Positions 5,595 through 43,489 of a DNA stretch of 64,000 nucleotides are shown one piece after another (the first letter of the stretch is position 1; each line of letters begins with the position of its first letter). The translations under genes were made by a program, and so were the position numbers. Under the pieces are notes generated by a model. The model searched no databases, had not been told where the DNA came from, and saw nothing but the letters and a program-made list of their open reading frames with translations. Origin of the DNA: an uncultured virus (IMG/VR IMGVR_UViG_3300046411_001024) (taxonomy: Duplodnaviria > Heunggongvirae > Uroviricota > Caudoviricetes). The stretch lies in IMG/VR virus record IMGVR_UViG_3300046411_001024; one strand, 5' to 3'.

Positions 5595-5596
5595 TT

Positions 5597-23403: not shown

Positions 23404-24483
23404 TTATACTGCTTCCTTTAAAGGTTTACTGAGTTCATCCCAGTCTAATTCATAATCACTATCACTTTCACTGTATTTCAGCACTCCTAGTTTTTCATAT
23501 CCAGGAATAACTTCTTCAGGAAGTAATCCAATTTTTTTCAGGTTAGGCATTATTCTACTGAACAATACTTCTTGAAACTGTGTTTGAAATAAATTTTCTT
23601 TTGAATATTCTTCAGTTGCTACTAAATCTAATCCATATTTTTTCCATACTTCAAAAGGTCTTAATCTATTTCTTGATACTGTACATGCTTCAAGTGCAAA
23701 CTTAGCACGATCTAATACTTCTTCTTCTGATAAAGTTTTAACAAACTCATGTAAATAATTAATACCAAAAGTCACATGCCTAGCTTCATCTCTAATAATT
23801 AATCCAATCATCTCTTTATATACTGGGTCACGACTTGATTCTTTTGAAGCATTAAATGCTGCGAGTGCGAGTCCTTCAATAATTACTTGCATTCCGATAA
23901 ACTTTAAATCCCATCTTGGGTCAGTAAGTATTTTATCTAGTAAAGTTTTCAGACCAGTTCCTATTGGCCAACTCGTTTTAATTCTTGTCTGTAAATATTT
24001 GTTAAATGCTTCTACATGTCTTGCTTCGTCAAAGGTTTGACTTGCTGCATACAACTTTGCGTTGAATGTTGGAGCACAGGATGCTAACTGACTTGCTACA
24101 AGTAAAGCACCTTGCTCACCATGTAAAAACTGACTAAGTGCCCATGCGTTTTGGTCATGTAAAAATGCTTTTCGTTTCTTTGTATCCCAGCCTTTATACA
24201 TTTCATGTTCAGTCCATTGATTATCTTCAAACTCAAACTCTTCATCAGTGATACCTTCAAACTCTGGCGACCAATCAACATCAACCTCTACATTCCAGTT
24301 TAACTCCTTGCCTAATTCATACAACTTACGAATGCGATTATCTTGTACTGTATAATCCCAGTTATATGAGCCAGTCAGTGGAGTCTGAAATATCTCGACA
24401 ACATCAGTTGGTTCTAGTTTTTTTGGATATTCACCATCGAAATCACGAACTTCTTTGGGTGTGGTAGTCTTTATAATTTTCAT
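23404..24483 (-). CDS. Ferritin-like diiron oxygenase (AurF-like)
   Basis: SQFLHGEQGAL, DEARH twice, IEGLALAAF. Confidence 0.88.
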   Translation of the reverse strand: MKIIKTTTPKEVRDFDGEYPKKLEPTDVVEIFQTPLTGSYNWDYTVQDNRIRKLYELGKELNWNVEVDVDWSPEFEGITDEEFEFEDNQWTEHEMYKGWDTKKRKAFLHDQNAWALSQFLHGEQGALLVASQLASCAPTFNAKLYAASQTFDEARHVEAFNKYLQTRIKTSWPIGTGLKTLLDKILTDPRWDLKFIGMQVIIEGLALAAFNASKESSRDPVYKEMIGLIIRDEARHVTFGINYLHEFVKTLSEEEVLDRAKFALEACTVSRNRLRPFEVWKKYGLDLVATEEYSKENLFQTQFQEVLFSRIMPNLKKIGLLPEEVIPGYEKLGVLKYSESDSDYELDWDELSKPLKEAV

Positions 24484-24496: not shown

Positions 24497-24629
24497 ACTC
24501 TTCTATCGGTGGTAAGTGTTTCTTTTTATTAGGCACAACCTGACTTCTATACTTGGGTGTGCGTAGTTCTTTGGCAACAGGGTCTCTACTCCGAATATCT
24601 TTTATTGACTTGCGAGTGTTTTTCTTCAT
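24492..24629 (-). CDS. Small basic protein (45 aa), ArfA-like pattern
   Basis: Hand translation MKKNTRKSIKDIRSRDPVAKELRTPKYRSQVVPNKKKHLPPIEEL; fills the gap. Confidence 0.55.
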   Translation of the reverse strand: MKKNTRKSIKDIRSRDPVAKELRTPKYRSQVVPNKKKHLPPIEEL

Positions 24630-25161
24630 CTGCCCTTACCTTTTTAATTACATCTGTTAGTTTCGCACTCTTTTTTAATTTGTAATAATCTATCGCTATC
24701 TGTGGTGCGTCGACATTTTCAGTTTGTCCAGACTCTACCATATGTAAATATTGTGTATAACTTTTTACTGCTTCCTCTTCAAAATAATGTGTCATACGAT
24801 GAGCAGTTTTAGGAAAGAAAATATATAGTAGTAAATAAAAAATAATAAAAATAAACTGAGCAAATAAAACTATGTATCGTTCTAACCATGATGGTTTTGC
24901 GATATCAATAAAAATCATTAGATGCATTCTTTCATTCTCAGCTTCATCCATCATCTCGCGAATCTTTGGACCCAAGCCACTCTTCATCTTACGAAGAGAT
25001 TTCATATGTAGCCAAACACCAGCAACCATTCCAGGAACTGCAGCAACAGTTTCTAATACGACTGCACGATGCCCATACCTTTTAGCAAAAAAAGTATCGG
25101 CTATGAAACGAAAGAACATAGTCATGCTCTTCGCAAACTTATCTTTAATTATTTCCCCCAT
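24586..25161 (-). CDS. aox: Alternative oxidase (ubiquinol oxidase)
   Basis: LETVAAVPGMV, EAENERMHL, FEEEAVKSY, RADEEKH diiron motifs. Confidence 0.96.
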   Translation of the reverse strand: MGEIIKDKFAKSMTMFFRFIADTFFAKRYGHRAVVLETVAAVPGMVAGVWLHMKSLRKMKSGLGPKIREMMDEAENERMHLMIFIDIAKPSWLERYIVLFAQFIFIIFYLLLYIFFPKTAHRMTHYFEEEAVKSYTQYLHMVESGQTENVDAPQIAIDYYKLKKSAKLTDVIKKVRADEEKHSQVNKRYSE

Positions 25162-26905: not shown

Positions 26906-27343
26906 TTAAATGTCAAATCCATCAATATATGCCTGTAAGTCTTCCATATCCTGAGTTGACAGGTTTGCTGCCTGTCCCCACATTAATGCTGACTGGGCAC
27001 CTCTAGTTTCCCCAGCTTTATATTGCTCTAGCATCTTAACAATCGATGTAGATCCAGATAATTTTGGACCAATACCACCCTCGCCATTCATACCATGACA
27101 CATATTACAATTAACATATTTCTTAGCACCTCTATCAGCTGGTGTTTCTGATTGCATCGCTACTCGCTTTGCTTCAAGTTGCTCAGTAAATGTACCAAAC
27201 TTATTATGGTATTCTTCAAGACACTCACCTTGGCATCCATGAACATCAGTATATCCTTTGACATCTGCGTTGGCGTATGCTAAGTTCAATATCCAAAACA
27301 ATCCTATACTTCCGACTAGGAAAGCAGTTATTCCTTCTCTCAT
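26906..27343 (-). CDS. Class I cytochrome c (c553-like)
   Basis: Signal/anchor, CNMCH heme motif, GPKL, ALMWGQA axial Met region. Confidence 0.9.
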   Translation of the reverse strand: MREGITAFLVGSIGLFWILNLAYANADVKGYTDVHGCQGECLEEYHNKFGTFTEQLEAKRVAMQSETPADRGAKKYVNCNMCHGMNGEGGIGPKLSGSTSIVKMLEQYKAGETRGAQSALMWGQAANLSTQDMEDLQAYIDGFDI

Positions 27344-27349: not shown

Positions 27350-27898
27350 CTATGGGGTTATACTCTCCCATCCGAGTTGTTTAATTTCTGGATCTACTTT
27401 AGTCATCACATTAAGTAAATCTTGTTTCTCTAACTTGAACACTTTGTAGAATTCAGGATCGTGTTCTTTTATAGACTCAGTATTATGTATAAGGTCAAAA
27501 ACTTTTATCGTTTGTACTTCCTTACTACCTTGAGCAAGATGGTCACGATCCATTGCTTTTCTAGTAGCACGATTCCCATCTTCTGGCTTTGATACATCAG
27601 TCAAACCTCTAACCAGTTCGCTAACTTTGTCGCCAAAGAATCGTGCTATTTCTTCATGTGATGCAGGTGTATCTTCAACTACATCATGCAATAATGCTGC
27701 CATGTACATATCCTCAGTAGTATCTTTGTAATTAATTCTTAATAATTCAGCAACTGCTGTAGGATGTGTGATGTATGGCTCGCCAGTGTACTTTCTCTTT
27801 TGCCCAATATGAGCATTCTTCGCATAAGTACCAGCGAGATTTATTCTTGGGGAAAATATGCCTTTAAACAAATTTCCGTCGTGCTTTTTAACTGGCAA
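27350..27898 (-). CDS. HD-domain (p)ppGpp hydrolase-like protein (SpoT-HD/Mesh1 family)
   Basis: AH.GQKRKYTGEPYITHP, AALLHDVVEDT, IK..DLIHN; likely TTG start behind GAGG. Confidence 0.88.
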   Translation of the reverse strand: MPVKKHDGNLFKGIFSPRINLAGTYAKNAHIGQKRKYTGEPYITHPTAVAELLRINYKDTTEDMYMAALLHDVVEDTPASHEEIARFFGDKVSELVRGLTDVSKPEDGNRATRKAMDRDHLAQGSKEVQTIKVFDLIHNTESIKEHDPEFYKVFKLEKQDLLNVMTKVDPEIKQLGWESITP

Positions 27899-28412
27899 CT
27901 GCCACCTCTTGTAAATGTCTATCGGCGATAACCTTTTGTAATAAAGTGAGAGTATCAAGTACATTTTTATGACCGATACCAACACCACCATTATCGTTAA
28001 AGTAATGAACACAAGTAAGTTGGTCATCAATTAAGATGTCACCATCTTTACCGAAAGTTCCTTTTTCAGTTCTACCTTTCACGAAATTAGTGACCAAGTC
28101 ACCCAAACCATTTTCTAACAACCATAACCTTTTTTGTTTGCAACTTTCAGCAAACTGGTCATCATATAATGTATGAACACTAGATAAAATTTGGATTTCA
28201 TAACCATGCTTTTCAGCAATCTGTCTAGTAGAATCCATCAATTCATCCATGTTTACCATTCTAGGAAGTTTGGTAAATAGTTTATTCTGCATAACTTCAT
28301 CACGGAACTCTTCATATATAAAAGAGTGCCTTCCATTTCTGAAGTAATAGTCGTCAAAGTTGGCTAATACACCATCCATATCGACATATATTATTTTATT
28401 ATCTTTAATCAT
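27888..28412 (-). CDS. HAD-family 5'(3')-deoxyribonucleotidase-like protein
   Basis: IYVDMDGVLANF and ILIDD motifs. Confidence 0.88.
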   Translation of the reverse strand: MIKDNKIIYVDMDGVLANFDDYYFRNGRHSFIYEEFRDEVMQNKLFTKLPRMVNMDELMDSTRQIAEKHGYEIQILSSVHTLYDDQFAESCKQKRLWLLENGLGDLVTNFVKGRTEKGTFGKDGDILIDDQLTCVHYFNDNGGVGIGHKNVLDTLTLLQKVIADRHLQEVAVAS

Positions 28413-28488: not shown

Positions 28489-28890
28489 TCAATTACTTAT
28501 AAACTTTTTAAGATTAGGTGGTGAAAAATTCTTACTTTTAGTCACTTTTCCTGTAGATTCATCCTTTGTGAAGGGTGTTTTTGAGTAGTTGGAACGACCA
28601 ACTTCTGCGAATGCTTTAGTTAAATCCCACCCTTTCGAGTGAGCATATCCAGCAGCAACCCAGATTAAGTCGCATACAGCATCAAGCTGTTCGACTTCAT
28701 CTTTCATTCCATATGCTGCCATGAATTCATTAAATTCTTCATCAATTAGATTAGCATATAGTTCTGCTTGTTGATTAAAACCAGTATCGGCAAGTTCTTC
28801 AGATGGTGCTTGTTGACCTGCTATTTCCATCCATTCCTTTACCATATCAAATGGTTTTTTACTTTCAAATAATTTAGTTATTCCAGCCAT
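28489..28890 (-). CDS. MazG-like / PRA-PH nucleotide pyrophosphohydrolase
   Basis: LIDEEFNEF, LDAVCDLIWV, EVGRSNYSK, GKVTKSKNFSPP. Confidence 0.85.
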   Translation of the reverse strand: MAGITKLFESKKPFDMVKEWMEIAGQQAPSEELADTGFNQQAELYANLIDEEFNEFMAAYGMKDEVEQLDAVCDLIWVAAGYAHSKGWDLTKAFAEVGRSNYSKTPFTKDESTGKVTKSKNFSPPNLKKFISN

Positions 28891-28894
28891 GTTA

Positions 28895-29185
28895 TCAATC
28901 CCAGCCATGTATTTGCTCCTTTGGTACACCAGCTTCTTCCCAGTCTGCCAGTTTTCTAGTGGGGACTCTTCTTCGTTGTCCAGTTTCAGAATTAACCACT
29001 TCGTTTGTGTAAAGTGGTTCAGTTCGTATATCTTTCATTGCAGTTGGTACTTGGTCTGATAGTTTCTCATATTCTTGAGCCAATACATCGTATGCCTGTC
29101 TCAAGTTTTTTACTTCTGCTTCAAGTTCCAATATCCTTTTCTTATCAGTAGGATCGCCAAACATATCCATTTGTTCTTCAGTCAT
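28895..29185 (-). CDS. Hypothetical coiled-coil protein
   Basis: 96-aa ORF overlapping the KAS stop; GAGG RBS. Confidence 0.65.
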   Translation of the reverse strand: MTEEQMDMFGDPTDKKRILELEAEVKNLRQAYDVLAQEYEKLSDQVPTAMKDIRTEPLYTNEVVNSETGQRRRVPTRKLADWEEAGVPKEQIHGWD

Positions 29186-30380
29186 CTAAGTTCACCTCTA
29201 TTACTTGCGACATACATTTACCACCAAAGCCAAACGAATTATTTAGCATCGTACGAGTACGAAGTTGGTTTGAGTACATTTCATTCTCACGAACTAGAGT
29301 ACCATGTACATCTATACTTGATTGTTCTAAATTTTGAATATGTGGAACCCAGCCTTGTCTCATACTTTCAATAGCATAACATCCTTCAAGAATACCAGAT
29401 GCTGCAAGTGTATGACCGATTTTACTTTTCGGTGCCCACATTTTAGTTCCTGGCATAATTTCAGTGACTGCTTCATATTCGATTGGGTCACCAGCGATAG
29501 TACTTGTACCATGAGTACATACATAATCAACTTTATCTAAACCAGCATGACTTAAAGCATCTTGCATAGAAGTACGAGTACCAGTTCCTTCTGGGTTTAC
29601 CATATCTACTGCGTCACTTGCCATACCTGCTTTGTGTAATTTAGCATATGATTTACTTCCAAACTCTTTCATCTTTTCTTCTGATTGTAAAATCATACAT
29701 GCTCCACCATCGCCCATCAAGAAACCTTGTCGTCTATCATCAAAGGGCATTGACCAGTTTGCTAATGCTCCTAAACAAGCAAAGTATTTAATACCCATAG
29801 GGAAGTTAGCACAGTCACCAGCAGTACAGATAACATAGTCATACTCATCTACTAATCTCATAGCATAATCTATATTGACCATACCAGTAGCACACGATGC
29901 GAATGTAGCAGTTGATAAACCTTTGAAGCCATAGTAAGATGTAATATGCATACATCCCATATCAGGAATCCTATTTACTGCTCTACGAGCATTACCTCGT
30001 TTCATGTACTTAATATATTCAAAGTACACATCGATTCCTTCAGTATCATTTGAAACTGTACTGGCAAGGGTTGCTACTTTAGGACTGCGTTCTATACCAG
30101 CCATCTGCATAGCTGACTCAGTAGTACTACTCATCATCTTTTGAGCATTGGTCATACTTCGCCACATCTTTTTGTCAAACCCTTCAGGCATAACTATACG
30201 ATCTTCATCATGCATAGCACCACGATGAATTACTAAGTGGAAAATTTCTTCTACTTGTTTTGCCATGCCAGGGATTTCACGAGAGTAATCATTCTCGTCT
30301 AGCATTTTTGTGAAACATTCTTCGGGAGTGATGCCGAGAGCATCGCTCATACCATAACCAACTACATGCACAGGTTTCAT
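29178..30380 (-). CDS. Beta-ketoacyl-ACP synthase (FabB/FabF family)
   Basis: Intact Cys-His-His triad (ASCATG, THGTST, IGHTL); PFD..RQGF.MGDG; NNSFGFGG. Confidence 0.93.
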   Translation of the reverse strand: MKPVHVVGYGMSDALGITPEECFTKMLDENDYSREIPGMAKQVEEIFHLVIHRGAMHDEDRIVMPEGFDKKMWRSMTNAQKMMSSTTESAMQMAGIERSPKVATLASTVSNDTEGIDVYFEYIKYMKRGNARRAVNRIPDMGCMHITSYYGFKGLSTATFASCATGMVNIDYAMRLVDEYDYVICTAGDCANFPMGIKYFACLGALANWSMPFDDRRQGFLMGDGGACMILQSEEKMKEFGSKSYAKLHKAGMASDAVDMVNPEGTGTRTSMQDALSHAGLDKVDYVCTHGTSTIAGDPIEYEAVTEIMPGTKMWAPKSKIGHTLAASGILEGCYAIESMRQGWVPHIQNLEQSSIDVHGTLVRENEMYSNQLRTRTMLNNSFGFGGKCMSQVIEVNLDD

Positions 30381-30381
30381 A

Positions 30382-30663
30382 TTATAACTCCATTAAATAT
30401 TTAGATTCTTCTTTATCTTCTTCCTCTAGTATATACTTAGTCTCGCAAAATAACTCGAAACTTCTAAGTTCTACCATACCGAATACTTTATCATTTTTCA
30501 TACGATGCTTTTCTAATAATCCATCTATGAGATCTACTTTGTTATTAAACACATATTCTTGACACTCTTCATGACTAGAAAATGATATAGAGGTAAAGTC
30601 AGTTTGTACTGTACCAATGCCTTCATACCATAACAGTGCTGTCAAAATTATAAATGTTTTCAT
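30382..30663 (-). CDS. Hypothetical secreted protein
   Basis: 93 aa, signal-like N-terminus, F.S.EEC motif. Confidence 0.65.
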   Translation of the reverse strand: MKTFIILTALLWYEGIGTVQTDFTSISFSSHEECQEYVFNNKVDLIDGLLEKHRMKNDKVFGMVELRSFELFCETKYILEEEDKEESKYLMEL

Positions 30664-31688
30664 TTAGGATATTTTTTTCTGTACTCATCCTCTATGTTTA
30701 TTAGACTTTGCATTACATTACCGAATACTAATTTAAAAGGAACTCCAGGTTTTTCTAAGAAGTCATCATAACCTAGTCCTTGTTCCTTCAACATCTTTCC
30801 TTGCTCTTGTCCTCTACCAAGTAATCGATTTGATAGATAAACATCTTCTGCTTCATCCCAAGACATACCTTTAGCATTAGTGCCTAGATGTTTTTCTAAT
30901 TTATCTTTTAGTTGCTCTCCATCAAATACAGTTTCGGGAACATCTTCATTAGTCTCTTTATTATATAGGCACGAAAATAAACCATTATGTAATCGTGACC
31001 CATATTTTACTGTTCTATTATCAGTTTCCATATCAGCATAACCGAATCGATCTAAAGTTTTAGCTAATTTATCCCATCCTTCAAACTCACCTTTTCTATT
31101 CATAAATTCAATAGATATTGCGATTCTAGTTTTAGGAGAGTTATGCCATACTGAGTGTGGTTGTCCCACATTAATTAATCCAGGATATGACATTTGAAAA
31201 CTTAATTCTTCTTTTAGATTGCCTTGATATCCAGGAAGTATTCTTTCTCTTGGTATAATATAAGTTAAATCTTTTTCAGGATCGCCTGATACATTACACA
31301 TATCAGAGTCCCACTGTTCAGCTTCACTTGCATCCCAGTATGTCATGATAGAAGTTTCTTCTTCATCAGGTCGCCATGGTTCATATATTCCAGGACTTAC
31401 CTCTTCGAATGCCCAAGTCACTCTTCCCCAGTTCGGTCTTGCTGGAGAATCGCAGTGGGGAGACATACGATAATATGGATGAGCACGAAATATACTACAG
31501 CCATATGGCATAAGCATCATGTCTCTCCATTGTTTCATCATCTCAATACGAAACCAACTATTCCTTACACATATATTACCTCGTGCTGGATTTTCTCTTA
31601 GTGGTGCTAATATTTGATGTAGGTCTTCGTTAGTAATAGGTCGTTCAAGTGTATCCTTCAACGACATGTAGTAAGGTTCGTGTTTCAT
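30660..31688 (-). CDS. Cupin/2OG-Fe(II)-like oxygenase (putative)
   Basis: PHCD..INVGQPHSV..RIAISI facial-triad pattern. Confidence 0.6.
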   Translation of the reverse strand: MKHEPYYMSLKDTLERPITNEDLHQILAPLRENPARGNICVRNSWFRIEMMKQWRDMMLMPYGCSIFRAHPYYRMSPHCDSPARPNWGRVTWAFEEVSPGIYEPWRPDEEETSIMTYWDASEAEQWDSDMCNVSGDPEKDLTYIIPRERILPGYQGNLKEELSFQMSYPGLINVGQPHSVWHNSPKTRIAISIEFMNRKGEFEGWDKLAKTLDRFGYADMETDNRTVKYGSRLHNGLFSCLYNKETNEDVPETVFDGEQLKDKLEKHLGTNAKGMSWDEAEDVYLSNRLLGRGQEQGKMLKEQGLGYDDFLEKPGVPFKLVFGNVMQSLINIEDEYRKKYPK

Positions 31689-32473
31689 GTTATATCTCTA
31701 CTCCATCCAAACTCACCATCTTCTTTTACCCATGCTGAGATAGGAGATGGTTTGTCATCTTTTACAAATAAATGTCCCATTCTTTTTTCTATCGCTTTCC
31801 AATCATGTATCCTTGAACCAGTTCGTTTATCTCTAAAGTCAATAGAAATAGTATAGGATTCTTTTTCGCCATCATAAATCATACTATGAGCACAGTCAGG
31901 TCCACCCACACATATAAGTGAGCATTTACCCATCTGGGTATCAAAGTGTTTCTTTACTTTAGGTCTAGTTTCGTCATCAAACTCTATTAAATTTATTTCA
32001 GTATATGGCATCTTTGGGTGTCTGATTTTATTCCTGCGTTCCATATTACAGTCACGAGGATCCCAGAATGCCATACTTTTATCTGCGTTTTCATCTAAAT
32101 TTACAGGGAAGTTTAATCGCCAATAATAATTGATATTATAATCGACATAATCTATGTGTGGTCTGAGTGAATATCCTGGAGGAGATACAAATATAGTACC
32201 CACCAAAGCAGGTGCCATCATATTTCTATCTAACCATTTTAGAAACTCAGGATTGAAGTTAAAATGTTTAATCCATAGATTTGCTACGAAACCATATGCT
32301 GCGTATGAGTATGAAGATTTATCAGTGTACCATTGGTCAGGTATTAAATCTTCTCTGCGTTTTGCCCAGTCGCCACTTTCTTTATCATACCTTGCTATCT
32401 GTTTAGCAAGTTCTGCTTCAGTCAATGGGAATGGAACATCCTTCAACTCTACATGATATGGTGGTCTAAACAT
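31685..32473 (-). CDS. Cupin/2OG-Fe(II)-like oxygenase (putative)
   Basis: PHID..RLNFP..AHSM..TISIDF; similar layout to 30660-31688. Confidence 0.6.
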   Translation of the reverse strand: MFRPPYHVELKDVPFPLTEAELAKQIARYDKESGDWAKRREDLIPDQWYTDKSSYSYAAYGFVANLWIKHFNFNPEFLKWLDRNMMAPALVGTIFVSPPGYSLRPHIDYVDYNINYYWRLNFPVNLDENADKSMAFWDPRDCNMERRNKIRHPKMPYTEINLIEFDDETRPKVKKHFDTQMGKCSLICVGGPDCAHSMIYDGEKESYTISIDFRDKRTGSRIHDWKAIEKRMGHLFVKDDKPSPISAWVKEDGEFGWSRDIT

Positions 32474-32787
32474 TATTTCTTTTTCGTAGTTTTAGTTTTT
32501 TTCTTTTCGTATCCATATTTTTTACGCACATAGTCCTTAGTATCTTGCCATACATGCTCCAAATAAAATTCTTCATCAGCGAAGAAATTATGGAACTTAA
32601 CCATTACTGCTCCTGTCCAATTATAAAACCTTTTGAAGATTTTACCTTGGAGTCTTTTTAAGGCACTACCTCTTGGCATTGCCCATCCTAGTATAAAAAA
32701 TAAAAGTGAAAAAGTAAGAATTATGATATAATTAACCAAGCCACTTTCCATTTCAAAAACCAATTCTTCCATTGTGTATCCTTTCAT
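32473..32787 (-). CDS. Hypothetical membrane protein
   Basis: 104 aa, one TM helix, basic tail. Confidence 0.65.
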   Translation of the reverse strand: MKGYTMEELVFEMESGLVNYIIILTFSLLFFILGWAMPRGSALKRLQGKIFKRFYNWTGAVMVKFHNFFADEEFYLEHVWQDTKDYVRKKYGYEKKKTKTTKKK

Positions 32788-32804
32788 ATTGGAAGTTAGT
32801 CAAG

Positions 32805-32940
32805 TGGTAGTTTTTTGTTAATTCGGAAACTACCAAAACCGAACGCATGACTCTCAGATAGAGGAGTTAAACTTATGAAATAAGCAACTCAGTGAAGTGG
32901 CTACTTTATTTTCTAATATGTGTAGCTTTCACCATGCGAA
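32805..32940 (-). ncRNA. Candidate structured RNA: four-way junction plus H-type pseudoknot
   Basis: CGCATG/CATGCG closes three hairpins; then a TTCGG/CCGAA stem whose loop TGGTAGTTT pairs with AAACTACCA. Confidence 0.6.
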
Positions 32941-32942
32941 TC

Positions 32943-33890
32943 TTAACCTCTAACTTTATTTATATTCACTGCTCCAATCTTTTCTAAGAAAAGAATAAAA
33001 TATTGTGTCGGATCGTTTAATCCTTTACCAAAACTAAAGTCCTTTGGATAAGAATGATGATAATCGTGGGATCCTTCTCCCCAGTTTATGAAACTTAAAT
33101 ACCATGGGACATTACGAATATGTTGTTTTCCTCGTTTGTCACTATGTTGCCATGCGTTAGTTATACCCATAGACCATTGACCGAGACCTGCACCAGCAAA
33201 TGCTGCCCATGCAAAATTAATACCCCACTCTTGAATGTATAAGTATGGACCATCGTACCAATAAAAATGTGTTAAGTAATACCCCAACTCTGGTAGCATA
33301 ACTGCTAATCCATTTGTATATGTTTCTACAATGATTCCCCATAACAACATTAATAAGTAAGCACCAAATATAGTAATACACATAGATTTAAAACTATTAT
33401 CGTGATACCATCTAGCAGTTTTATTTCTCAGTAATCCTCTTGTAAATCTTAGTGGTACATTTTCAAAGGGTACATCCCACCTATGAGTTAAAGATCTTAA
33501 AAAACCAATTTGATGTGGACTGTGCGGATCCCTTTCCTCGTCTAGATATACATGGTGCATCCGATGTATTACTGCCCAAGCTAGTGGACTTCCGATGTTG
33601 CTTACTATACAAAGAGAGCAGAAGAAGTGTTCGAGCCATTTCCATTTTACAGTAATACTATTATGTGATAAACTTCTGTGCGCATATATTGTGATAGCCA
33701 TTGCTCCGAAAAACCACCATGCCAAAACATAGGGTATTAGATCCCATCTTCCAAATACAATGATTCCTAGCAGACACAACTGGGTGAACCACCAGTATCT
33801 GATACGAAAATTAATTTTATATGTGGTTAAGTGTTGCTCTCTAAAATTACTGAGCCAATCACGCAACCTTTGAAATCCGATAGTGAACAA
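32943..33890 (-). CDS. Membrane fatty acid desaturase (delta-9-like)
   Basis: His boxes HRSLSH, HRMHH, HDYHH; DPHSP; start uncertain (TTG, overlaps acpS). Confidence 0.92.
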   Translation of the reverse strand: MFTIGFQRLRDWLSNFREQHLTTYKINFRIRYWWFTQLCLLGIIVFGRWDLIPYVLAWWFFGAMAITIYAHRSLSHNSITVKWKWLEHFFCSLCIVSNIGSPLAWAVIHRMHHVYLDEERDPHSPHQIGFLRSLTHRWDVPFENVPLRFTRGLLRNKTARWYHDNSFKSMCITIFGAYLLMLLWGIIVETYTNGLAVMLPELGYYLTHFYWYDGPYLYIQEWGINFAWAAFAGAGLGQWSMGITNAWQHSDKRGKQHIRNVPWYLSFINWGEGSHDYHHSYPKDFSFGKGLNDPTQYFILFLEKIGAVNINKVRG

Positions 33891-34180
33891 TGTATGTTTA
33901 CCCCTGTTAATTTTTTCCTCATCTCGTCACTCGGTACTAAGTTCGGTGAGATATAGGAAAACATTTTAGCTTCTTTCATACCAACGATTGGGTGTTGTCT
34001 TGCTTTCACAAATGCTTCTTTTAACACCCATACCTTTGCTAGATAATTACATTTCTGCCTATCTAACAGTCCATCATATATTTCTTTTTCAGTCGGCGAC
34101 AATATAGTTTCCGACCATTTATCCCTGCGTCTATCAAATCTAGACTCAAGAACCATATCAATTCCGTGTCCTAAAATCAT
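33827..34180 (-). CDS. acpS: Holo-ACP synthase (4'-phosphopantetheinyl transferase)
   Basis: MILGHGIDMV, LAKVWVLKEAFVKA, HCSLS motifs. Confidence 0.88.
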   Translation of the reverse strand: MILGHGIDMVLESRFDRRRDKWSETILSPTEKEIYDGLLDRQKCNYLAKVWVLKEAFVKARQHPIVGMKEAKMFSYISPNLVPSDEMRKKLTGVNIHCSLSDFKGCVIGSVILESNT

Positions 34181-34422
34181 GTTTGGTAGTACTCTCTTGA
34201 AGTGTACTTCTTCAATGTTTCTAGTTTTTCTTCAGCAGCAGAAATCTTTTCTAGTTGTTTATCTATTTCAACCATGACTTCTGAATGCTCACCTATACCA
34301 ACTGAGTTGGATATATAGACTTGCATATTAGCATTTGCTTCAGCAATATCACCTTCATATTTTTTGACTAGAGCATCAACTATTAGTTGACTTCGCTCTG
34401 TCCTGCTTAATCTCTTCATCAC
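34177..34422 (-). CDS. Conserved phage hypothetical protein
   Basis: AL..KYEG.I..A.AN..VY..NSVGIGEH motif recalled from marine myoviruses. Confidence 0.75.
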   Translation of the reverse strand: MMKRLSRTERSQLIVDALVKKYEGDIAEANANMQVYISNSVGIGEHSEVMVEIDKQLEKISAAEEKLETLKKYTSREYYQT

Positions 34423-34849
34423 TTTTTCTCTCCTCTAATATAGTTAGTTCGCCTTTATCGGGATCTATATAGTATTTATGCTCATTAATTTCGTCCATAG
34501 TTTTATTGGCTTTTTGATGCCAATCCCAAGCAGTACCTCTTACATTTTTCTGACAGAATTCAGGAAACTCTTCTCCCTCTAATACTATCTCGCAATATAC
34601 TTTATGTTCGCCTATGGTTGCTGTATTTGCTTTCGCTACTGGTACTCGTTTATCACCTTCTTCAAAAAATATTTGTCGCTCATGGTCAAGTTCAAATAAT
34701 TGATGATTGACTACATAACGAATAATACCTTCATCAAACAACTCATCAATCTTATCAACCGAAGTATTCATTACAAAACCATTCAGTTGCATCTTTAGTT
34801 TTTCGTCTTTCATGGTTGCCCATTTACGATTAATTACATTATAAGTCAT
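34376..34849 (-). CDS. Hypothetical protein
   Basis: 157-aa ORF overlapping both neighbours. Confidence 0.65.
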   Translation of the reverse strand: MTYNVINRKWATMKDEKLKMQLNGFVMNTSVDKIDELFDEGIIRYVVNHQLFELDHERQIFFEEGDKRVPVAKANTATIGEHKVYCEIVLEGEEFPEFCQKNVRGTAWDWHQKANKTMDEINEHKYYIDPDKGELTILEERKSDEEIKQDRAKSTNS

Positions 34850-35600
34850 CTATACTCGGTGCCCCAATAATATTATATCCGCAATCTACATAATGTGTTT
34901 CACCTGTCACACCTGAAGATAAATCAGATAGGAAGTAATATGCACTTCCTGCTAAATCCTGTAGAGTGATATTTCGTTTCATAGGGTTCACTCCTTCGGC
35001 ATAAGCCAACATACCCTTACTGCCTTTTACAGCCATAGCAGATGATGTTTTTATTACACCTGCCGATATACAATTTATGCGTACTCCCTTTTCCGCACAG
35101 TCTTTCGCTAAGTATCTAGTTGCTGACTCAAGTGATGCTTTTACTAATCCCATTACATTATAGTTGTCGTAAACTCTACGAGCTCCATCATAACTAAGTG
35201 TGAGATATGCCCCACCTGTGTTCATAAATTCGATACTGTTTCTTACTATATCTATCAACGAATAACATCCTACGAGTAGCGACTCACTGAAGTTTTCCTT
35301 TGATATATCCATCATCTTACCATCTAACTCACGAAAGTCAGTCATACTCATTGCGTGAACAACATAATCAATCTTAGGATAATGGTGTTTGACAGCAAGA
35401 AAAGCATTCCTTACATCCATACTATTAGATACATCGCACTTAATAGTATGAGCCATAGGCGATAGTCTAGTAATTCTTTTCTTTATGGAATCGTTTGGAT
35501 AAGTGAAGACACAAGTATATCCTTCATCTATTAACTTGTTGGCGATACCCCATGCGATGGAGCGATCGTTCGCCACTCCCATAACAACAGCTACTTTCAT
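34839..35600 (-). CDS. fabI: Enoyl-ACP reductase
   Basis: MGVANDRSIAWGIA, YNVMGLVKASLE (Y-x6-K), RINCISAG, TGETHYVDCG. Confidence 0.93.
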   Translation of the reverse strand: MKVAVVMGVANDRSIAWGIANKLIDEGYTCVFTYPNDSIKKRITRLSPMAHTIKCDVSNSMDVRNAFLAVKHHYPKIDYVVHAMSMTDFRELDGKMMDISKENFSESLLVGCYSLIDIVRNSIEFMNTGGAYLTLSYDGARRVYDNYNVMGLVKASLESATRYLAKDCAEKGVRINCISAGVIKTSSAMAVKGSKGMLAYAEGVNPMKRNITLQDLAGSAYYFLSDLSSGVTGETHYVDCGYNIIGAPSIDDL

Positions 35601-38398: not shown

Positions 38399-39145
38399 TT
38401 ATTTTACCCTGTTTTTAAGGTTTTTAAGAGCTGTTTCTAGCTTTAAAGGTATATATGGGGCAAATTGGAGGGTTGTGCGTGGTTTATTACTATGGTTTCT
38501 AACACCATGAATAGTAGATAGGTTGATAAGGCAGGTTCCATTATTCTGATGAGTGAATACTCTGGTGCATTCTGCCTGTTCTTTCTCAGTTAAGATAGCA
38601 TAGATATCTTCCCTATGCTTAAATTTTTCTTTATCTCTTTGAGCAATAGATTCTTGGAAATTAAAATCCCATGTTGGGTGAGAGTAGAAGTCTGTATGAT
38701 GTTCTCCTTCTCCCCAAGTCATGTTTATCGCCCACGAGTCTCCATGCTGGCGAGAATGACAATGTAATGCCATCTTAGAATTAGGTGGTGTGGTTAGAAC
38801 AATACAATACCAACCTCCAGGAATCCAATTAAGATATCTATGTACAACTTCAGGTATTACCTCTGGGCGAAGTTCCCAAGGAAAAGAGTTTTGTTTCCAT
38901 TGACCACCATGTTCATGACTATCTGCATATTCACCAACATTAAAATGCATCTCTTGGTCTAATAGATTAATATCTTCATGTTGAAGACCAGTAGTTTGTT
39001 CCCCATCCTTTGTAAGATTGATAACTGTAATTGTTTTCTTATCAGTTGACCAAAGATTAGGTCTTTCTATTTTAGGGATGTTTAATGGGATTAAGTATTT
39101 AGATTGAATAAGGGACTTGTTTCCACTTACCACTTTCTTGGTCAT
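38399..39145 (-). CDS. Cupin/2OG-like oxygenase (putative)
   Basis: LHCH..WAINM..LINLSTIHGVRN..RTTLQF. Confidence 0.55.
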   Translation of the reverse strand: MTKKVVSGNKSLIQSKYLIPLNIPKIERPNLWSTDKKTITVINLTKDGEQTTGLQHEDINLLDQEMHFNVGEYADSHEHGGQWKQNSFPWELRPEVIPEVVHRYLNWIPGGWYCIVLTTPPNSKMALHCHSRQHGDSWAINMTWGEGEHHTDFYSHPTWDFNFQESIAQRDKEKFKHREDIYAILTEKEQAECTRVFTHQNNGTCLINLSTIHGVRNHSNKPRTTLQFAPYIPLKLETALKNLKNRVK

Positions 39146-39398
39146 AGTAAAATTCCTGACATGAGTGTGACCAAAATTCTACATAGTAAGTAGTTTCCCC
39201 ATGAGATATAGTGTAGTTTCCTGTCTCATCCTTTTGAAATGGTAATGGGTATTCTTTTATATTATTCTTTAAAAAATAAGCACACTCGTTTCTATTTTCA
39301 AATGGTATAGTCCAGTTGGAATGAAGAGTGTCTCCACTGCCTACAAATGCAGTAAGCACTATGTAAAAAATAGTATCTATGAAAATATCTGGCATCAT
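39099..39398 (-). CDS. Hypothetical secreted protein
   Basis: 99 aa, hydrophobic N-terminus, FENRNEC motif. Confidence 0.6.
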   Translation of the reverse strand: MMPDIFIDTIFYIVLTAFVGSGDTLHSNWTIPFENRNECAYFLKNNIKEYPLPFQKDETGNYTISHGETTYYVEFWSHSCQEFYYDQESGKWKQVPYSI

Positions 39399-41236
39399 TT
39401 TGGTTCGTATATTGTTATAAGTTCTTCTTTTCCCTTCACCTTGATTTTATCAAGTTCTTTGGATTCAATACTATTTAGGGCATCTTTGGTGTACTGAGAA
39501 TATAGAGTATGACAGTTTTTATAGTTTCTAGTTTGAGCTTCTAATCTGGCAGCAAGGTTTACTGCGTCACCGATTACTGAGTAATCAAATCTCATTTCAC
39601 TACCCATATTTCCTACAATACATGTACCAGTATTTACACCTGAGCCAATATTAATCTCAGGTAATCCTGCTTCTTTATATTCTTTCTTTAATTTTTGTGT
39701 TTCTTCAGCACACTCTATAGAAGTTTTGACTGCCAACTCTGCGTGATTATCACAATCAAGTGGAGCATTCCAGAATGCCATAATACAGTCGCCCATATAT
39801 TTATCGACACACCCACCATTAGCCAATACAATTTTAGTCATACGATTTAAGTAATCATTGATGAGTTCAACTAATCCTTCTGGGTCATCTTTATTTTTAA
39901 AATACTCAGATATAGGAGTAAAGCCAACTATATCCATAAATAAGAAACTCATCTCTCTTTTCTCACCACCCAGTTTTAATTTACTTGGATCTTTTTGTAA
40001 TATAGCAACTTGTCTTGGATCTAGATATCTTTCAAACTGTTTTCTTATTTGTTGTTTTAAATTAAACTCTAGGATAAATCTAGTAAAGGTAGCATGAAAA
40101 CCTACAAGGAATGTAGCTATTACAAACCAAGATACATCTACTAGCCAACCATAATAAGTAAATGCGAAGTATGCTTTCGCGATGGCAGCAGATACAACCA
40201 CACCTAGATAAATTGCCAACCAAGCATAAGGTAAAAACCTACAAGCAAAGATAGTAATAATACACCAAAACATCATTAGCATTATTTCTGCTAATGGCAA
40301 CCAATCTACTCTAGTTATTTGTTCGCCTGATAAAACAGTTTGTAATGTAGAAGCAGTTATATAATGTGAATACTGTTCACCTCTTGGTGTAGCAATTATA
40401 TTAGATATACCAGCAGCAGTTGGAGATACGATTATAGTTTTACCAAATAATAATAAATCATTTATCCCATTTTCTACATCCATCATTGACATAGTATGAT
40501 ATTCTTTATCGTGCCTTAACCATATTCTAGCATTCGCATCAGTTTCAATAGTAGCGAATCCTGGAACTCTCATAGCTTGTATGCCACCATCACCTGCTTT
40601 TACTTGATAGGATGGGTCGCCCACTGCGACTCTAATAACTTCTATGGCTATACTAGGATATATGTCATTATCTATTTTCATAAGTAGAGGAACTCTACGA
40701 ACAACACCATCTATTTCAGGTGCAGTATTTACAACACCTACACCATTTGCTGCCTGACCAAGTTGTGGTATTGGACCAAGCATACCACCCCACTCAAATA
40801 AGTATGGTAATGGGTCACCTATTTTAGCCACACCTCTAGGCACACCATTCTTATTAATATCATTAGTTCCTAATTGAGCGATAACAGTTCCTGCTTTTAG
40901 TGTAGATTCAAACACCCAGTCGCCATCCTCTCTATCTTTTTCTGAGAATAATATTGGGAATACTATTACACCTGCTCCAGCTTCTCTTAATTTTTCTATA
41001 AGGAAACTGTAGTGTACTCTAGAGAATGGGTATTGACCTTTGACATCTAATGTAGCTTCGTCTATTTCAACTATAACTATATCTTCAGAAAAAGTTTTTT
41101 CTTCTGATGCTAATAGAAAATCAAAAGATTTTAATTTAATTATTTCTTTGAAGTCAGGATTGTATAATCCGATACCTGCCAGAATGGCAAGTGTTATGAA
41201 CGCACTAGTCCAGTGTGTTAGAATCTTTTTTATCAT
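39395..41236 (-). CDS. CHASE2-domain adenylate/guanylate cyclase
   Basis: IVIVEIDE..GQYPFSR and DGVVRRVPL (CHASE2); three TM helices; FMDIVGFT, DKYMGDCIMAFWNAP, GDAVNLAARLE (class III cyclase). Confidence 0.95.
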   Translation of the reverse strand: MIKKILTHWTSAFITLAILAGIGLYNPDFKEIIKLKSFDFLLASEEKTFSEDIVIVEIDEATLDVKGQYPFSRVHYSFLIEKLREAGAGVIVFPILFSEKDREDGDWVFESTLKAGTVIAQLGTNDINKNGVPRGVAKIGDPLPYLFEWGGMLGPIPQLGQAANGVGVVNTAPEIDGVVRRVPLLMKIDNDIYPSIAIEVIRVAVGDPSYQVKAGDGGIQAMRVPGFATIETDANARIWLRHDKEYHTMSMMDVENGINDLLLFGKTIIVSPTAAGISNIIATPRGEQYSHYITASTLQTVLSGEQITRVDWLPLAEIMLMMFWCIITIFACRFLPYAWLAIYLGVVVSAAIAKAYFAFTYYGWLVDVSWFVIATFLVGFHATFTRFILEFNLKQQIRKQFERYLDPRQVAILQKDPSKLKLGGEKREMSFLFMDIVGFTPISEYFKNKDDPEGLVELINDYLNRMTKIVLANGGCVDKYMGDCIMAFWNAPLDCDNHAELAVKTSIECAEETQKLKKEYKEAGLPEINIGSGVNTGTCIVGNMGSEMRFDYSVIGDAVNLAARLEAQTRNYKNCHTLYSQYTKDALNSIESKELDKIKVKGKEELITIYEPK

Positions 41237-41633
41237 ACCAATTTGATATCGCTTTCTTTATTCCTTCTTCTGCTAATACTGAACAGTGAATTTTAATTGG
41301 TGGTAAATCTAATGCTTCAGCTATCTCATCGTTTGTAATCGCCATAGCTTGTTCAATAGTTTTACCTTTTAACATATCTACGAACATTGTAGAGGATGCA
41401 ATAGCAGAACCACACCCATATGTTTTAAACTTGACATCTAATATCTTGGCTTTATCAGGATCGTTAGCTTGGTCAAGTTTTAGTTGAAGTTTCATGACAT
41501 CCCCACATGATGGGGCACCAACCATACCAGTGGCTATATCTGAATCCTGCGGATTGAATTTACCAACCGCATGCTTTTCAGGATTGCGTAGAACACTTTC
41601 AAATCTTTCTACGACTTCTTTAGAATAAGCCAC
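41205..41633 (-). CDS. iscU: Fe-S cluster scaffold protein
   Basis: GAPSCGDVM, FKTYGCGSAIASS, LPPIKIHCSVLAE. Confidence 0.95.
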   Translation of the reverse strand: MAYSKEVVERFESVLRNPEKHAVGKFNPQDSDIATGMVGAPSCGDVMKLQLKLDQANDPDKAKILDVKFKTYGCGSAIASSTMFVDMLKGKTIEQAMAITNDEIAEALDLPPIKIHCSVLAEEGIKKAISNWYDKKDSNTLD

Positions 41634-41660: not shown

Positions 41661-42386
41661 TTAATCTGCCACTGTGACATTACACCCATTACTAGAATTA
41701 CAAAACTGATTAAGCGAGTACGAACTGTTGCTATATCCATTATTCTGGTTGAGATCTAAGTTAGTCGGATAGTTGCCATCTAGAGTTATGGTAGCAGTAT
41801 GAGCAGAGTTATAACCCATCTGATAAGCAACTACATTATTATTATCATTATTTATAGTTAGGTTAAATGTTTTTGACCCATCGTGACCTTGCATTATTCC
41901 AACATTATTACCATCACTGTATATTTTTAAATCTATTGAATGCGCACTATATATTTGACTTGGTGAACCATTTCTTTGAGCCATATAGACATCGTTATTA
42001 TCTCCTTGTAGATATAACTTTTGATTGTGATTGCCAGCTTCTTGATTATCTGTTTGTGTAAAGTTTGTAAAGTTTGTAGTGCCTACACCCATACCCATGA
42101 ATATATCATTACTATGACCATTAATATCAACATGTGCTGTTGAGAAGGTAGAAGTTGAAACAGTTTGTTTTTGTGTAATCTTTAGGGAGTTATTATTACC
42201 AACGATACTAGCAGTTTGATTATGATATCCTCTAATTAAATTATTACCAGTACCATCTTGAATTACTTCTAGATTAAAATTATTTCCTGATTGGTTTATA
42301 TAAAGTTCGCTACCGAATGCTTCGGTCGCAAATAAAACAAAAAATATAATACTACTGATTTTGTAAAATATTGATGACATTGTCAT
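41661..42386 (-). CDS. Curlin-repeat protein (CsgB/CsgA-like)
   Basis: Signal peptide; repeated I.Q.G..N / G..N.V units; terminal Cys pair. Confidence 0.75.
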   Translation of the reverse strand: MTMSSIFYKISSIIFFVLFATEAFGSELYINQSGNNFNLEVIQDGTGNNLIRGYHNQTASIVGNNNSLKITQKQTVSTSTFSTAHVDINGHSNDIFMGMGVGTTNFTNFTQTDNQEAGNHNQKLYLQGDNNDVYMAQRNGSPSQIYSAHSIDLKIYSDGNNVGIMQGHDGSKTFNLTINNDNNNVVAYQMGYNSAHTATITLDGNYPTNLDLNQNNGYSNSSYSLNQFCNSSNGCNVTVAD

Positions 42387-43473
42387 TTCCTCCTAGTTCG
42401 TAATCAAATATGGCAAAGTCATTTTGTGTAAATGAAATTACATAACCATATTCTTTATCTAATCTAAGTTCAAAAAAGTTTCCTGCTCCCTCTCTAGAAT
42501 AAACCCAATGTGGATCTTCATCTAGAATTATAATGCCAGTTTCAGGATCTTTACCTAATCTTATATCGCCTGTAGATTTTTGTTTATCAAACTCACTTCG
42601 CATAGCTTTAGCAAGTTCTTTATTAATTTGAGCCAAAATATCTACCAAAAAGTTTTGCTCTAAAAAATCTATATCTAATCCAGTTGCCCACTGGTCTTCT
42701 TCTTCCTCTAAATAATCTACCTCTAAATCGTCAAACTGTAGGAAGTCAATATCTAATGCCGATGCTACTTTATTATATGCTGCTTCTCTCGCTTCACCTT
42801 CTTCTATTTCTTTCGGCTTTGACACGATAAGTAAATTGCCTATCATATCCTCATCTAAATTTAGTAATACTGGTTTCATCGGCTGTGATGATACAGTACT
42901 AACTACTGTTGCTTGAAATGCTTGGTTAAGTATTACTTGACCTATATCTGATTCTACTGATATCTCACCTACAAAGCAAGCACCAGTAGAGTCGCAACTT
43001 GGTAGTAATATAATTGTAGAACCACCAATCTCATCAACAGTCATGCTAAAGTCAGTTCCCCTTACAGCGATAGTTGCTGTAGGTGTAGTGATATTAACAT
43101 CTTGCCTTGAGTTCTTTGCTATCTGACCTGAAGCATATCTGATTGTTCCTAAACTTGCTTTCAATGACAGTTTTCCTGTCTTAGCTTTAGGATCGTAAAC
43201 GAATTCATCAATGATTAGTTTAGAATGTTCTGTGACATCTACCCTTGTATCATCTACGAAGTCTATAGAAGTTTTACCATCACCAGTCTTTACAGTGTCA
43301 TAGCTGAAAACATCTAAATCTTCTGTAGTGTTTACTGACTCGCCATCAGCTTTTCTTTCAATAAACCCACTTCCTTGATGGATAGTGACTTTACCAATAT
43401 CGGCTTTAGCTTCTTGTGAGCATAGTAGAAGCATGCCAAATATCGTCATTGGTATAGCGAGTTTCAAACTCAT
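42352..43473 (-). CDS. FecR-domain protein
   Basis: Signal peptide; DTVKTG, F.DDT.V.VTEHSKL.ID, TPTATIAVRGTDF. Confidence 0.88.
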   Translation of the reverse strand: MSLKLAIPMTIFGMLLLCSQEAKADIGKVTIHQGSGFIERKADGESVNTTEDLDVFSYDTVKTGDGKTSIDFVDDTRVDVTEHSKLIIDEFVYDPKAKTGKLSLKASLGTIRYASGQIAKNSRQDVNITTPTATIAVRGTDFSMTVDEIGGSTIILLPSCDSTGACFVGEISVESDIGQVILNQAFQATVVSTVSSQPMKPVLLNLDEDMIGNLLIVSKPKEIEEGEAREAAYNKVASALDIDFLQFDDLEVDYLEEEEDQWATGLDIDFLEQNFLVDILAQINKELAKAMRSEFDKQKSTGDIRLGKDPETGIIILDEDPHWVYSREGAGNFFELRLDKEYGYVISFTQNDFAIFDYELGGNDNVINILQNQ

Positions 43474-43489
43474 AACAAACCTTTACGAA

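Follow-up and report, generated by a model that had tools for sequence, protein, structure and literature searches.

Fatty-acid genes in phages have appeared in print in several forms. Going by the accessible text of the source, freshwater pelagimyophages (fonsimyophages, PMP-D) carry fabF, a stearoyl-CoA desaturase gene and speH, which are listed there as unique to these phages (Zaragoza-Solas et al. 2020, PMC7029224). Cyanophages encode Delta-9 lipid desaturases whose activity has been demonstrated (Roitman et al. 2017, PMC5776448, available portion), and fabG-acpP-fabF occurs in predicted prophages of Rhodobacteraceae (roseobacters) (PMC8224337, available portion). Excerpts of two further sources report fabG, fabF and fabZ in a read-level virome annotation at 1000 m depth and a viral acyl-CoA desaturase from Lake Baikal. 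Here we analyse a block of ten genes in a 64,000-nucleotide stretch of DNA from an uncultured virus of the Caudoviricetes (IMG/VR record IMGVR_UViG_3300046411_001024; the whole stretch is called the window below), a block that in our view has an even chance of being the virus's own, incomplete type II module for elongating and tailoring fatty acids, organised around an acyl carrier protein (ACP). An earlier note on this DNA, made from its letters, knew of no such multi-step set in a T4-like phage; the set is less without precedent than that, given the fabF and stearoyl-CoA desaturase genes, the Delta-9 desaturases and the fabG-acpP-fabF sets that the three numbered papers describe.

The block consists of ten open reading frames (ORFs) on the minus strand between 29178 and 35600, tiled with overlaps of 1-64 bases and interrupted by one gap of 155 bases. 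Four of the ten score above Pfam cut-offs: a beta-ketoacyl synthase (KAS), a membrane desaturase, AcpS and FabI. All four retain their catalytic residues in alignments and all four fall under the NCBIfam equivalog cut-offs, and we therefore regard them as diverged family members, not housekeeping copies. The earlier note had read from the letters a tightly overlapping run containing FabI with an intact Y-x6-K, AcpS, a His-box membrane desaturase and a KAS with a Cys-His-His triad, divergent from housekeeping FabF, all in a T4-like context, and the profile searches and alignments described below bear this out. We refer to the phage clade of the window as clade A and to its sister clade, in which KAS is 57% identical, as clade B. 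The block, and a related gene 3 kb upstream of it, are made up as follows:

29178-30380, minus strand: KAS, predicted to be a chain-elongating beta-ketoacyl synthase of KAS I/II type, from a virus-specific clade (PF00109 and PF02801)
30382-30663, minus strand: 93-aa ORF with a hydrophobic N-terminus, without family match in Pfam or PHROG; 50% identity in some clade-A contigs
30660-31688, minus strand: oxyA, Fe(II)/2-oxoglutarate (2OG)-oxygenase fold (AlphaFold2 (AF2) model, Foldseek, VIA)
31685-32473, minus strand: oxyB, a paralogue of oxyA (BLASTP E=3e-6; HxD...H)
32473-32787, minus strand: 104-aa protein with a single hydrophobic helix and a Lys-rich tail, without family match in Pfam or PHROG; 66-100% conserved over clade A
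32943-33890, minus strand: predicted membrane di-iron desaturase, SCD/DesC (Delta-9) type (PF00487; His boxes compared with SCD1)
33827-34180, minus strand: predicted AcpS-type (group I) 4'-phosphopantetheinyl transferase (PPTase; PF01648)
34177-34422, minus strand: orf81, an 81-aa ORF matching phrog_1811 (PHROG E=4e-23)
34376-34849, minus strand: orf157, a 157-aa ORF without match in Pfam, NCBIfam or PHROG; beside the module in both clades, the clade-B homologue being 32-35% identical
34839-35600, minus strand: FabI, predicted enoyl-ACP reductase (PF13561)
38399-39145, minus strand: oxyC, a third member of the oxy family (HxH...H...R), upstream of the block (hhalign)

This block is phage-owned, intact, conserved, co-occurring and under purifying selection. 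T4-like core genes lie in the same window (a gp5-like hub, gp32, gp59, RNase H, primase, ribonucleotide reductase and baseplate genes), a related 131-kb record (G003) carries gp23, portal, sheath, terminase, DNA polymerase, UvsW/X/Y and RegA, and gp23 is present in two other large KAS-bearing records. T4-like phages are lytic. The GC content of the window is even, 0.34-0.38 from 6 kb on, and the order RNaseH-DUF6433-...-FabI-...-AcpS-desaturase-oxyB-oxyA-KAS-MazG is found again in 10 contigs of IMG/VR, drawn from 10 data sets, in which KAS is 88-100% identical. We take the block to be viral because both the window and its relatives carry T4 core genes, and because of the uniform GC and this repeated gene order. 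The earlier note had raised the prospect of a misassembled host fragment, or of genes that fail to co-occur in related phages, and had proposed a synteny survey in IMG/VR; the survey returned the same order in all 10 contigs, and the block is intact, selected and conserved in related phages. Ratios of dN/dS are 0.06-0.18 in all parts tested (KAS 0.08-0.13, desaturase 0.06-0.07, FabI 0.15) against 0.11 for RNase H, values that are rough with dS at 0.5-1.3.

The IMG/VR record G001 has 98% of the window's sampled words in common with it and overlaps its right end at 100% identity. In addition, 14 DNA runs from 10 studies contain 0.99 of the words, and each of these runs is possibly the source of the window. 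Contigs from RNA libraries (4 runs, 3 studies) map to oxyA/B, to the desaturase and AcpS, and to FabI; we rejected them as a sign of expression and do not count them as such, run X15 evenly covering 29 of 30 bins of 14 kb and DNA carry-over being possible. As to the host, the gp23 capsid protein is 66% identical to that of OM43 phage Melnitz, 63-64% to those of cyanophages and 63% to that of Pelagibacter phage HTVC008M, and the window contains the curli genes CsgG and CsgF. FabI finds a match at E<=1e-20 in 391 of 401 alphaproteobacterial genomes (389 of 399 leaving out the unpublished genomes G051 and G251), with identities of 40-48% among the matches listed; a SAR86 genome gives 40%. Identities at this level across the Alphaproteobacteria offer no pointer to a donor or host.

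KAS scores 75.6 bits against PF00109 and 78.1 bits against PF02801 (cut-off 20.8), and in alignment with E. coli FabF (1b3n/1kas) it retains the Cys, the two His, the Lys and the NSFGFGG loop. C163, H290, K318 and H323 are invariant in 31 of 31 diverse family members, C163, H290 and H323 forming the triad. By contrast, the protein fails the FabF equivalog test, with 183.5 bits for TIGR03150 where the cut-off is 493.75, and it sits apart from cellular FabF. A metagenomic protein collection yielded 1420 relatives at E<=1e-10 from 3002 candidates, and the best 120 of these 1420 are 44-99% identical, some of them on contigs of 120-330 kb. From IMG/VR we obtained 110 relatives and kept 80 loci; together with the loci of the contig survey, 81 were analysed, which form 31 lineages at 85% identity. 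A search of 185,579 species genomes gave 617 relatives, and identity does not exceed 38% among the best 80 of these. When 31 viral sequences were placed in a tree with 77 cellular ones, the viral set occupied one side of a single branch (SH-aLRT 100), and the window's lineage is sister to clade B with a support of 97; the tree comes from a quick search, with a cellular sample picked by peptide pattern. Taken together, these sequence comparisons place KAS in a divergent, virus-only clade and argue that it is not a recent host copy. An SCD-type desaturase gene lies within 10 kb of KAS in 11 of the 31 lineages; AcpS and FabI stand beside it in the window's clade only. Small ORFs directly upstream of KAS in other lineages were inspected for an ACP motif, and none was found.

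Assignments of the other three enzymes rest on similar evidence. The desaturase scores 34.3 bits against PF00487 (cut-off 29.7), and its three His boxes (HX4H, HX2HH, HX2HH) align with those of stearoyl-CoA desaturase (4zyo/4ymk); across 22 sequences that represent 11 viral lineages, H71, H76, H109, H112, H113, H249, H275, H278 and H279 are each at least 95% conserved. We therefore predict a desaturase of the stearoyl-CoA (Delta-9) type. AcpS, a single-domain protein of 117 aa, scores 40 bits against PF01648 (cut-off 25), its GHGID and KEAFxKA motifs align with 1fte/3hyk, and it retains D8, E55 and K59, of which we take the Asp and Glu to be Mg-binding residues. Its scores fall short of the NCBIfam holo-ACP synthase cut-offs (TIGR00556, 42 against 45.35; TIGR00516, 38.2 against 59.8), and it is present in clade A records only. 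FabI reaches 229.7 bits against PF13561 and has YNVMGLVK, that is, Y147-x6-K154. It has 55 PDB matches at E<=1e-20, enoyl-ACP reductases without exception, and its top NCBIfam models are all FabI, the score for NF005078 being 262.9 bits where the equivalog cut-off is 446.

The earlier note had found neither ACP nor FabG in the window. This is correct for the window, but an ACP domain lies just past its right end: in record G001, a gene on the module's strand, some 0.8-1.7 kb past window position 64000, encodes a protein of 321 aa that contains a PP-binding domain. The domain scores 24.2-27 bits against PF00550 (cut-off 20.8), residues 159-239 match ten NCBIfam ACP models, and of its 94 PDB matches the top 60 are all fatty-acid-type ACPs (aligned to 1x3o). 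An alignment of 34 sequences shows no change at Ser195, which lies in a DSL motif, or in the ACP core, and there is conservation in an N-terminal region as well. The protein is not a free-standing ACP of about 80 aa; the domain is embedded, and all 34 homologues have 315-326 aa. The family is restricted to this phage clade (37 clusters, 74-98% identity). The carrier gene and FabI occur together in all four records that reach far enough (G001, G002, G003 and G415), and AcpS was found in the three of those four that were searched for it (G001-G003). By comparison, carrier, AcpS and FabI are all absent from the two clade B records examined, G004, which is complete with terminal repeats, and G005. 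Of five long contigs with the carrier gene, four run away from the module and are uninformative here. Beside the carrier gene (L002:1049-5029, in G001) is a gene whose product, of 1326 aa, has DUF5824 and, at the N-terminus, an NMNAT-like nucleotidyltransferase region; DUF6267 and DUF5754 proteins are encoded on either side. We considered the cytidylyltransferase-like domain next to the carrier gene as the CoA enzyme PPAT and dropped the idea on finding it NMNAT-like.

The two genes between KAS and the desaturase that the earlier note had called cupin/2OG-like oxygenases belong to no family in Pfam, NCBIfam or PHROG, yet that call was right as to fold. oxyA is a near-orphan, with 5 matches in 1.8 billion representatives, and for oxyB we found only relatives that are 74-100% identical; the two are paralogous by the BLASTP match listed above. 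A survey of neighbourhoods in other viral lineages produced 45 unique members of the oxy family, from which we built an alignment of 39 rows (34 family members including the window's oxyA, plus oxyB and four oxyB relatives; mean identity 18%). H78 and H178 are invariant in it, D80 is kept in at least 90% of rows, and the consensus around the distal His is PHxVxNxxxxxRxxxS, with an Arg at +10 that is presumably the ligand of the 2OG carboxylate. With this alignment, AF2 modelled residues 1-125 and 156-225 of oxyA at pLDDT ~80-92, the C-terminal third remaining unmodelled; the putative site is H78, D80, H178 and R188. Foldseek returned 15 matches to it at E<=0.001, nearly all of them Fe/2OG dioxygenases. 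VIA, a search independent of Foldseek, placed proline 3-hydroxylase 1e5r first (Z=10.1, rmsd 4.3, 156 aligned) and human AspH fourth (Z=8.7), with nearly all of the top 50 in the same superfamily. The model thus indicates a Fe(II)/2OG-oxygenase fold (double-stranded beta-helix) for oxyA.

For oxyB, the same fold is predicted from its paralogy to oxyA; its putative site is H106, D108 and H196, with an invariant HxD...H, and the AF2 model obtained from a nine-row alignment is poor (pLDDT 46.5). A prediction of the complex of oxyA(1-230) with oxyB scored 0.00 and is uninformative on pairing. oxyC, which occurs only in the two contigs nearest to the window, matches family profile A4 in hhalign with a probability of 91% (E=9.3e-7, 106 columns). 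Compared with PDB sequences, the oxy-family profile gave nothing meaningful, the top match being an unrelated phosphatase at E=0.11. Compared with viral neighbours of the PF05118 (LpxO-like) type, it gave a weak hhalign match (probability 40%, E=3e-4, 23 columns); the family has no Pfam match to PF05118, and the atlas lead score is 0.90-0.92. Cellular members were not found in the searches that we ran, in which the family is virus-only.

Genes of this kind keep company with KAS well beyond clade A. Of the 31 KAS lineages, 5 have members of the oxy family, in many cases as a tandem array of 4-5 genes immediately upstream of KAS; Asp_Arg_Hydrox genes proper (E=5.5e-19) flank KAS in 4 lineages, and 2OG-FeII_Oxy_3 genes occur in 3. 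In all, KAS abuts a gene of an oxygenase family in 11 of 31 lineages where 0.7 would be expected, and none of 5000 permutations reaches 11; the null draws a random gene of the same loci, and although the lineages are related, three oxygenase families are involved. One lineage (L084/L085; L084:2513-13682, ~11 kb) combines KAS with a free-standing 80-aa ACP, three 2OG oxygenases, a P450, two Asp_Arg_Hydrox genes, a soluble acyl-ACP desaturase (E=2.5e-52) and PhyH, and to judge by these gene matches it looks like a fuller acyl-ACP tailoring cluster. The window itself also contains three Asp_Arg_Hydrox genes proper and one 2OG-FeII_Oxy_3 gene (7121-7942 and 7935-8684 on the plus strand, 52817-53731 and 55544-56098 on the minus strand); two of the three Asp_Arg_Hydrox genes are in tandem among baseplate genes, and with oxyA, oxyB and oxyC the window has seven genes of 2OG-oxygenase type.

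If the block is a partial elongation and tailoring module centred on a viral carrier, phage AcpS would put phosphopantetheine on Ser195 of the phage's own 321-aa protein, the virus-specific KAS would join acyl-ACP with malonyl-ACP, host FabD, FabG and FabZ/A would supply malonyl transfer, ketoreduction and dehydration, and phage FabI would close each cycle. The SCD-type desaturase would then add a double bond, oxyA, oxyB and oxyC would probably add hydroxyl groups, and the product would most likely go into lipids of the infected cell's envelope (acyl chains of the membrane or of lipid A type), altering them while infection proceeds. The roles of the enzymes, the pairing of AcpS with the carrier and the reliance on host enzymes are what we infer from the genes; the product and its destination are speculative, an envelope lipid being the most economical guess for the latter. 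In clade A the carrier in use is probably that of the phage itself, since the co-occurrence of a PPTase with a carrier suggests that the two act together. A weak envelope context is seen in Pelagibacter phage Mosig (MT647606.1, L204:6318-7594), a SAR11 myophage in culture, where an Asp_Arg_Hydrox gene is directly upstream of a short FA_desaturase gene (27% identical to the window's desaturase) and the pair is near a depositor-annotated sugar aminotransferase and carbamoyltransferase. The depositors' annotation of that island also lists aminotransferase, FMN reductase, TauD-like and radical-SAM-like genes.

Several observations weigh against this account. Five records, one of them a complete genome, yielded neither FabD (PF00698) nor FabA/Z (PF07977) nor an SDR other than FabI, and when 133 G003 ORFs and those of the window were scanned with Pfam, no FabD, FabG, FabA/Z or FabH domain was detected (FabH was not searched on its own); the module therefore cannot work alone, and we assume host enzymes for the missing steps. 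We had also thought of orf157 as a hidden FabZ, an idea from its size only, and saw no hot-dog motif by eye. In clade B and most other KAS lineages there is no ACP, AcpS or FabI within reach, from which it follows that viral KAS can work without a viral carrier, and this in turn makes host AcpP the likelier usual substrate. Some 30 kb separate the carrier gene from the module, and the ACP domain sits inside a larger protein that has other conserved parts. oxyB lacks the Arg 10 residues past the distal His that is presumed to bind 2OG, and the oxygenases could act on proteins or nucleotides, as many members of their families do. The clade A records, moreover, are 43-73% complete.

A rival view is that KAS, FabI, AcpS and the desaturase act on host AcpP and host lipids after host shut-off, for bulk fatty-acid or phospholipid supply or for membrane fluidity, while the carrier protein has an unrelated role. 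The complete clade-B genome and most of the 31 KAS lineages, with KAS and often a desaturase but no viral ACP, AcpS or FabI, would be expected on this view, as would the distance of the carrier gene from the block and the likeness of its ACP domain to those of housekeeping fatty-acid synthesis (FAS); single desaturases that alter membranes are documented as auxiliary metabolic genes in the accessible text of PMC5776448. However, a phage that boosts the host would hardly need its own PPTase and carrier, and it would be odd for the carrier to accompany FabI in all four informative records, with AcpS in the three searched for it, and for all three to be gone from the complete sister genome. The invariant Ser195 and ACP core speak against an unrelated role for the carrier, the virus-only KAS is not a recent host copy, and a tight link with oxygenase arrays is unexpected for bulk synthesis. 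Since clade B lacks all three extras and so shows that KAS can also work without a viral carrier, we leave the own-carrier account at an even chance and consider plain boosting of the host unlikely. Rather unlikely, in our estimate, is a small dedicated pathway that builds a hydroxylated or unsaturated chain on the phage carrier for something other than bulk membrane lipid: a signalling or defence lipid, a superinfection-blocking decoration of the lipid A or ornithine-lipid type, or an acyl group on a phage protein. LpxO, a hydroxylase of lipid A acyl chains, is a member of the Asp/Arg-hydroxylase family, and in rhizobia one lipid A fatty acid is made with an ACP and FabF enzymes reserved for that purpose. 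The phage's own carrier and PPTase, the position of the carrier inside a larger conserved protein, the oxygenase arrays adjoining KAS and the ACP, acyl-ACP desaturase, P450 and PhyH of L084/L085 all fit such a pathway, but no acyltransferase, thioesterase or ligase that could offload the product was detected among the 133 G003 ORFs or the window's ORFs, and oxyA and oxyB are no more than putative members of an LpxO-type family, given the weak hhalign match above. The earlier note had offered membrane remodelling or a dedicated acyl product, for example to acylate virion or surface structures; the dedicated product gains weight from the carrier and PPTase, and we found no evidence for acylation of the virion.

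Two further explanations fare much worse. KAS might be an inhibitor or decoy that shuts off host fatty-acid synthesis; overproduced FabF is toxic in E. coli, where it blocks FAS, and KAS stands alone in many lineages. We consider this very improbable, as the catalytic apparatus is invariant in all 31 diverse KAS sequences, the KAS gene is under purifying selection and its companions have intact active sites. That the block is misassembled or contaminating host DNA is a negligible prospect: nothing supports it, although fab matches in phage collections are mostly fragmentary or unannotated and some are apparently bacterial, and the 10 contigs with the same order from RNase H to MazG, the uniform GC and the virus-only KAS clade with its distance from cellular sequences all contradict it. 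A broader reading, which we think unlikely, is that an ancient virus-only KAS lineage of marine and freshwater T4-like phages may be the core of a modular acyl-ACP tailoring system, to which lineages add arrays of 2OG oxygenases, membrane or soluble desaturases, P450 and PhyH and, here, a carrier, a PPTase and an enoyl reductase, with a hydroxylated or unsaturated acyl product distinct from the host's bulk lipid, such as a lipid A-type decoration of the envelope that would alter the surface of the infected cell.

The remaining genes of the block and its surroundings are varied. A DNA search of deposited phages matched the block only in 190 bases under orf81, whose DNA is 70-76% similar to genes listed as hypothetical in Pelagibacter podophages and in two uncultured phages. 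A promoter scan returned 37 sites where 41.6 were expected and gives no operon structure. Directly downstream of KAS on the minus strand are genes for a cytochrome c with a hydrophobic N-terminus (26906-27343), an HD_4 (SpoT-like) hydrolase (27350-28030) and a MazG-type pyrophosphohydrolase (28489-28929); a cytochrome c also accompanies KAS and desaturase in the viral lineage L070/L072. Two more O2-using di-iron proteins are encoded 4-6 kb from the lipid block, an AurF-like oxygenase (23404-24483, minus strand), which at 26.4 bits is below the cut-off of 29.6, and an adjoining alternative oxidase/PTOX (24586-25161, minus strand; E=2e-68). On the other side, at 39395-41236 on the minus strand, is a 613-aa protein in which a CHASE2 sensor (E=2e-38) is fused to an adenylate/guanylate cyclase domain (E=1e-19; phrog_35576), a membrane sensor-cyclase in a T4-like phage of which the scanned G003 ORFs had no such Pfam match. 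NifU/IscU is located at 41205-41633, and a FecR-like protein, CsgG (E=4e-56) and CsgF at 42352-45510 (minus strand) make up a partial curli secretion set like that of marine pelagimyophages in the accessible literature. Between baseplate genes on the plus strand lie a TnsA-like endonuclease (5576-6064) and a staphylococcal-nuclease homologue (6085-6534) which, with a SegE-type GIY-YIG endonuclease at 47825-48244, are possibly mobile nuclease insertions. In the related record G003 (L029:12925-18510), a P-loop nucleotide kinase, an inositol-phosphate-synthase-like protein, an ADDT amino acid:DNA transferase, an FkbM methyltransferase and a Tet/JBP oxygenase follow in a row, a probable DNA hypermodification cluster by its gene content.

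To judge from its genes, this marine T4-like phage probably produces or remodels lipids while it infects a cell, in part with machinery of its own. To our knowledge, earlier descriptions of phage lipid genes concern one gene or a pair at a time; a carrier with the enzyme that activates it, together with a condensing enzyme, a reductase and O2-dependent tailoring, would be the closest approach so far to a virus-run acyl assembly line in a phage of the abundant, streamlined bacteria of the sea. The KAS clade and its non-random pairing with oxygenases provide a testable idea of function for the 2OG-oxygenase genes of marine T4-like phages, and if the modular tailoring system exists, those unexplained genes of marine myophages would gain a lipid substrate. 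If the product alters the envelope, it would be relevant to superinfection exclusion and lysis, and also to the oceanic lipid pool fed by viral lysis. The carrier fusion protein and the oxy family are in themselves new protein families.

The PMP-D phages are among the nearest described systems. Like the window's phage they are T4-like, of the same broad group, and in the available text their genes for KAS and an SCD-type desaturase adjoin RNase H, at the place where the window has them too. Clade B, with its KAS 57% and its desaturase 38% identical to those of the window and an AdoMet decarboxylase gene adjacent, after KAS, fits the PMP-D description, as far as that text goes, because of this KAS-desaturase pair and the decarboxylase. 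Relative to PMP-D, the window's clade adds FabI, AcpS and the carrier-domain protein, which the accessible part of PMC7029224 does not mention, and has curli genes, as marine pelagimyophages are there said to have; the same text gives one sentence to fabF-desaturase and does not analyse the oxygenase neighbours. In the open literature, subscription papers and supplements lying outside it, we found no report of a phage FabI, AcpS, PPTase or carrier fusion.

The cyanophage desaturases, as presented in the available portion of their source, resemble the window's in being membrane auxiliary genes that a phage carries and that alter host acyl chains; they are single genes with demonstrated activity. 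A tblastn search of deposited phages at E<=0.001 with the window's desaturase returned no cyanophage, and the only match was that of Pelagibacter phage Mosig, at 27% identity. The roseobacter prophages share with the window several FAS genes, ACP and KAS among them, in a phage context, but in the accessible text they keep the host's operon order and may be recent captures or a matter of boundary calls, while the window's phage is T4-like, with a virus-only KAS, an ACP fused into a protein encoded elsewhere in the genome, and FabI and AcpS in place of FabG. With bacterial type II FAS the phage set has in common the folds, the catalytic residues and the carrier chemistry (FabF/B, FabI, AcpP, AcpS); the bacterial system has more roles, and the phage set has 4, all below equivalog cut-offs, with the ACP inside a 321-aa protein. 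The oxy family resembles PF05118 in the match of the oxyA model to human AspH, in a distal His-Arg motif that aligns and in the PF05118 genes that flank KAS in 4 other viral lineages, and differs from it in having no Pfam match, a profile match confined to 23 columns and only viral members in the searches run. What is new relative to these systems is the extension of the fabF-desaturase pair to a carrier-centred set, together with the oxygenase-fold family, the carrier fusion and the association of KAS with oxygenases.

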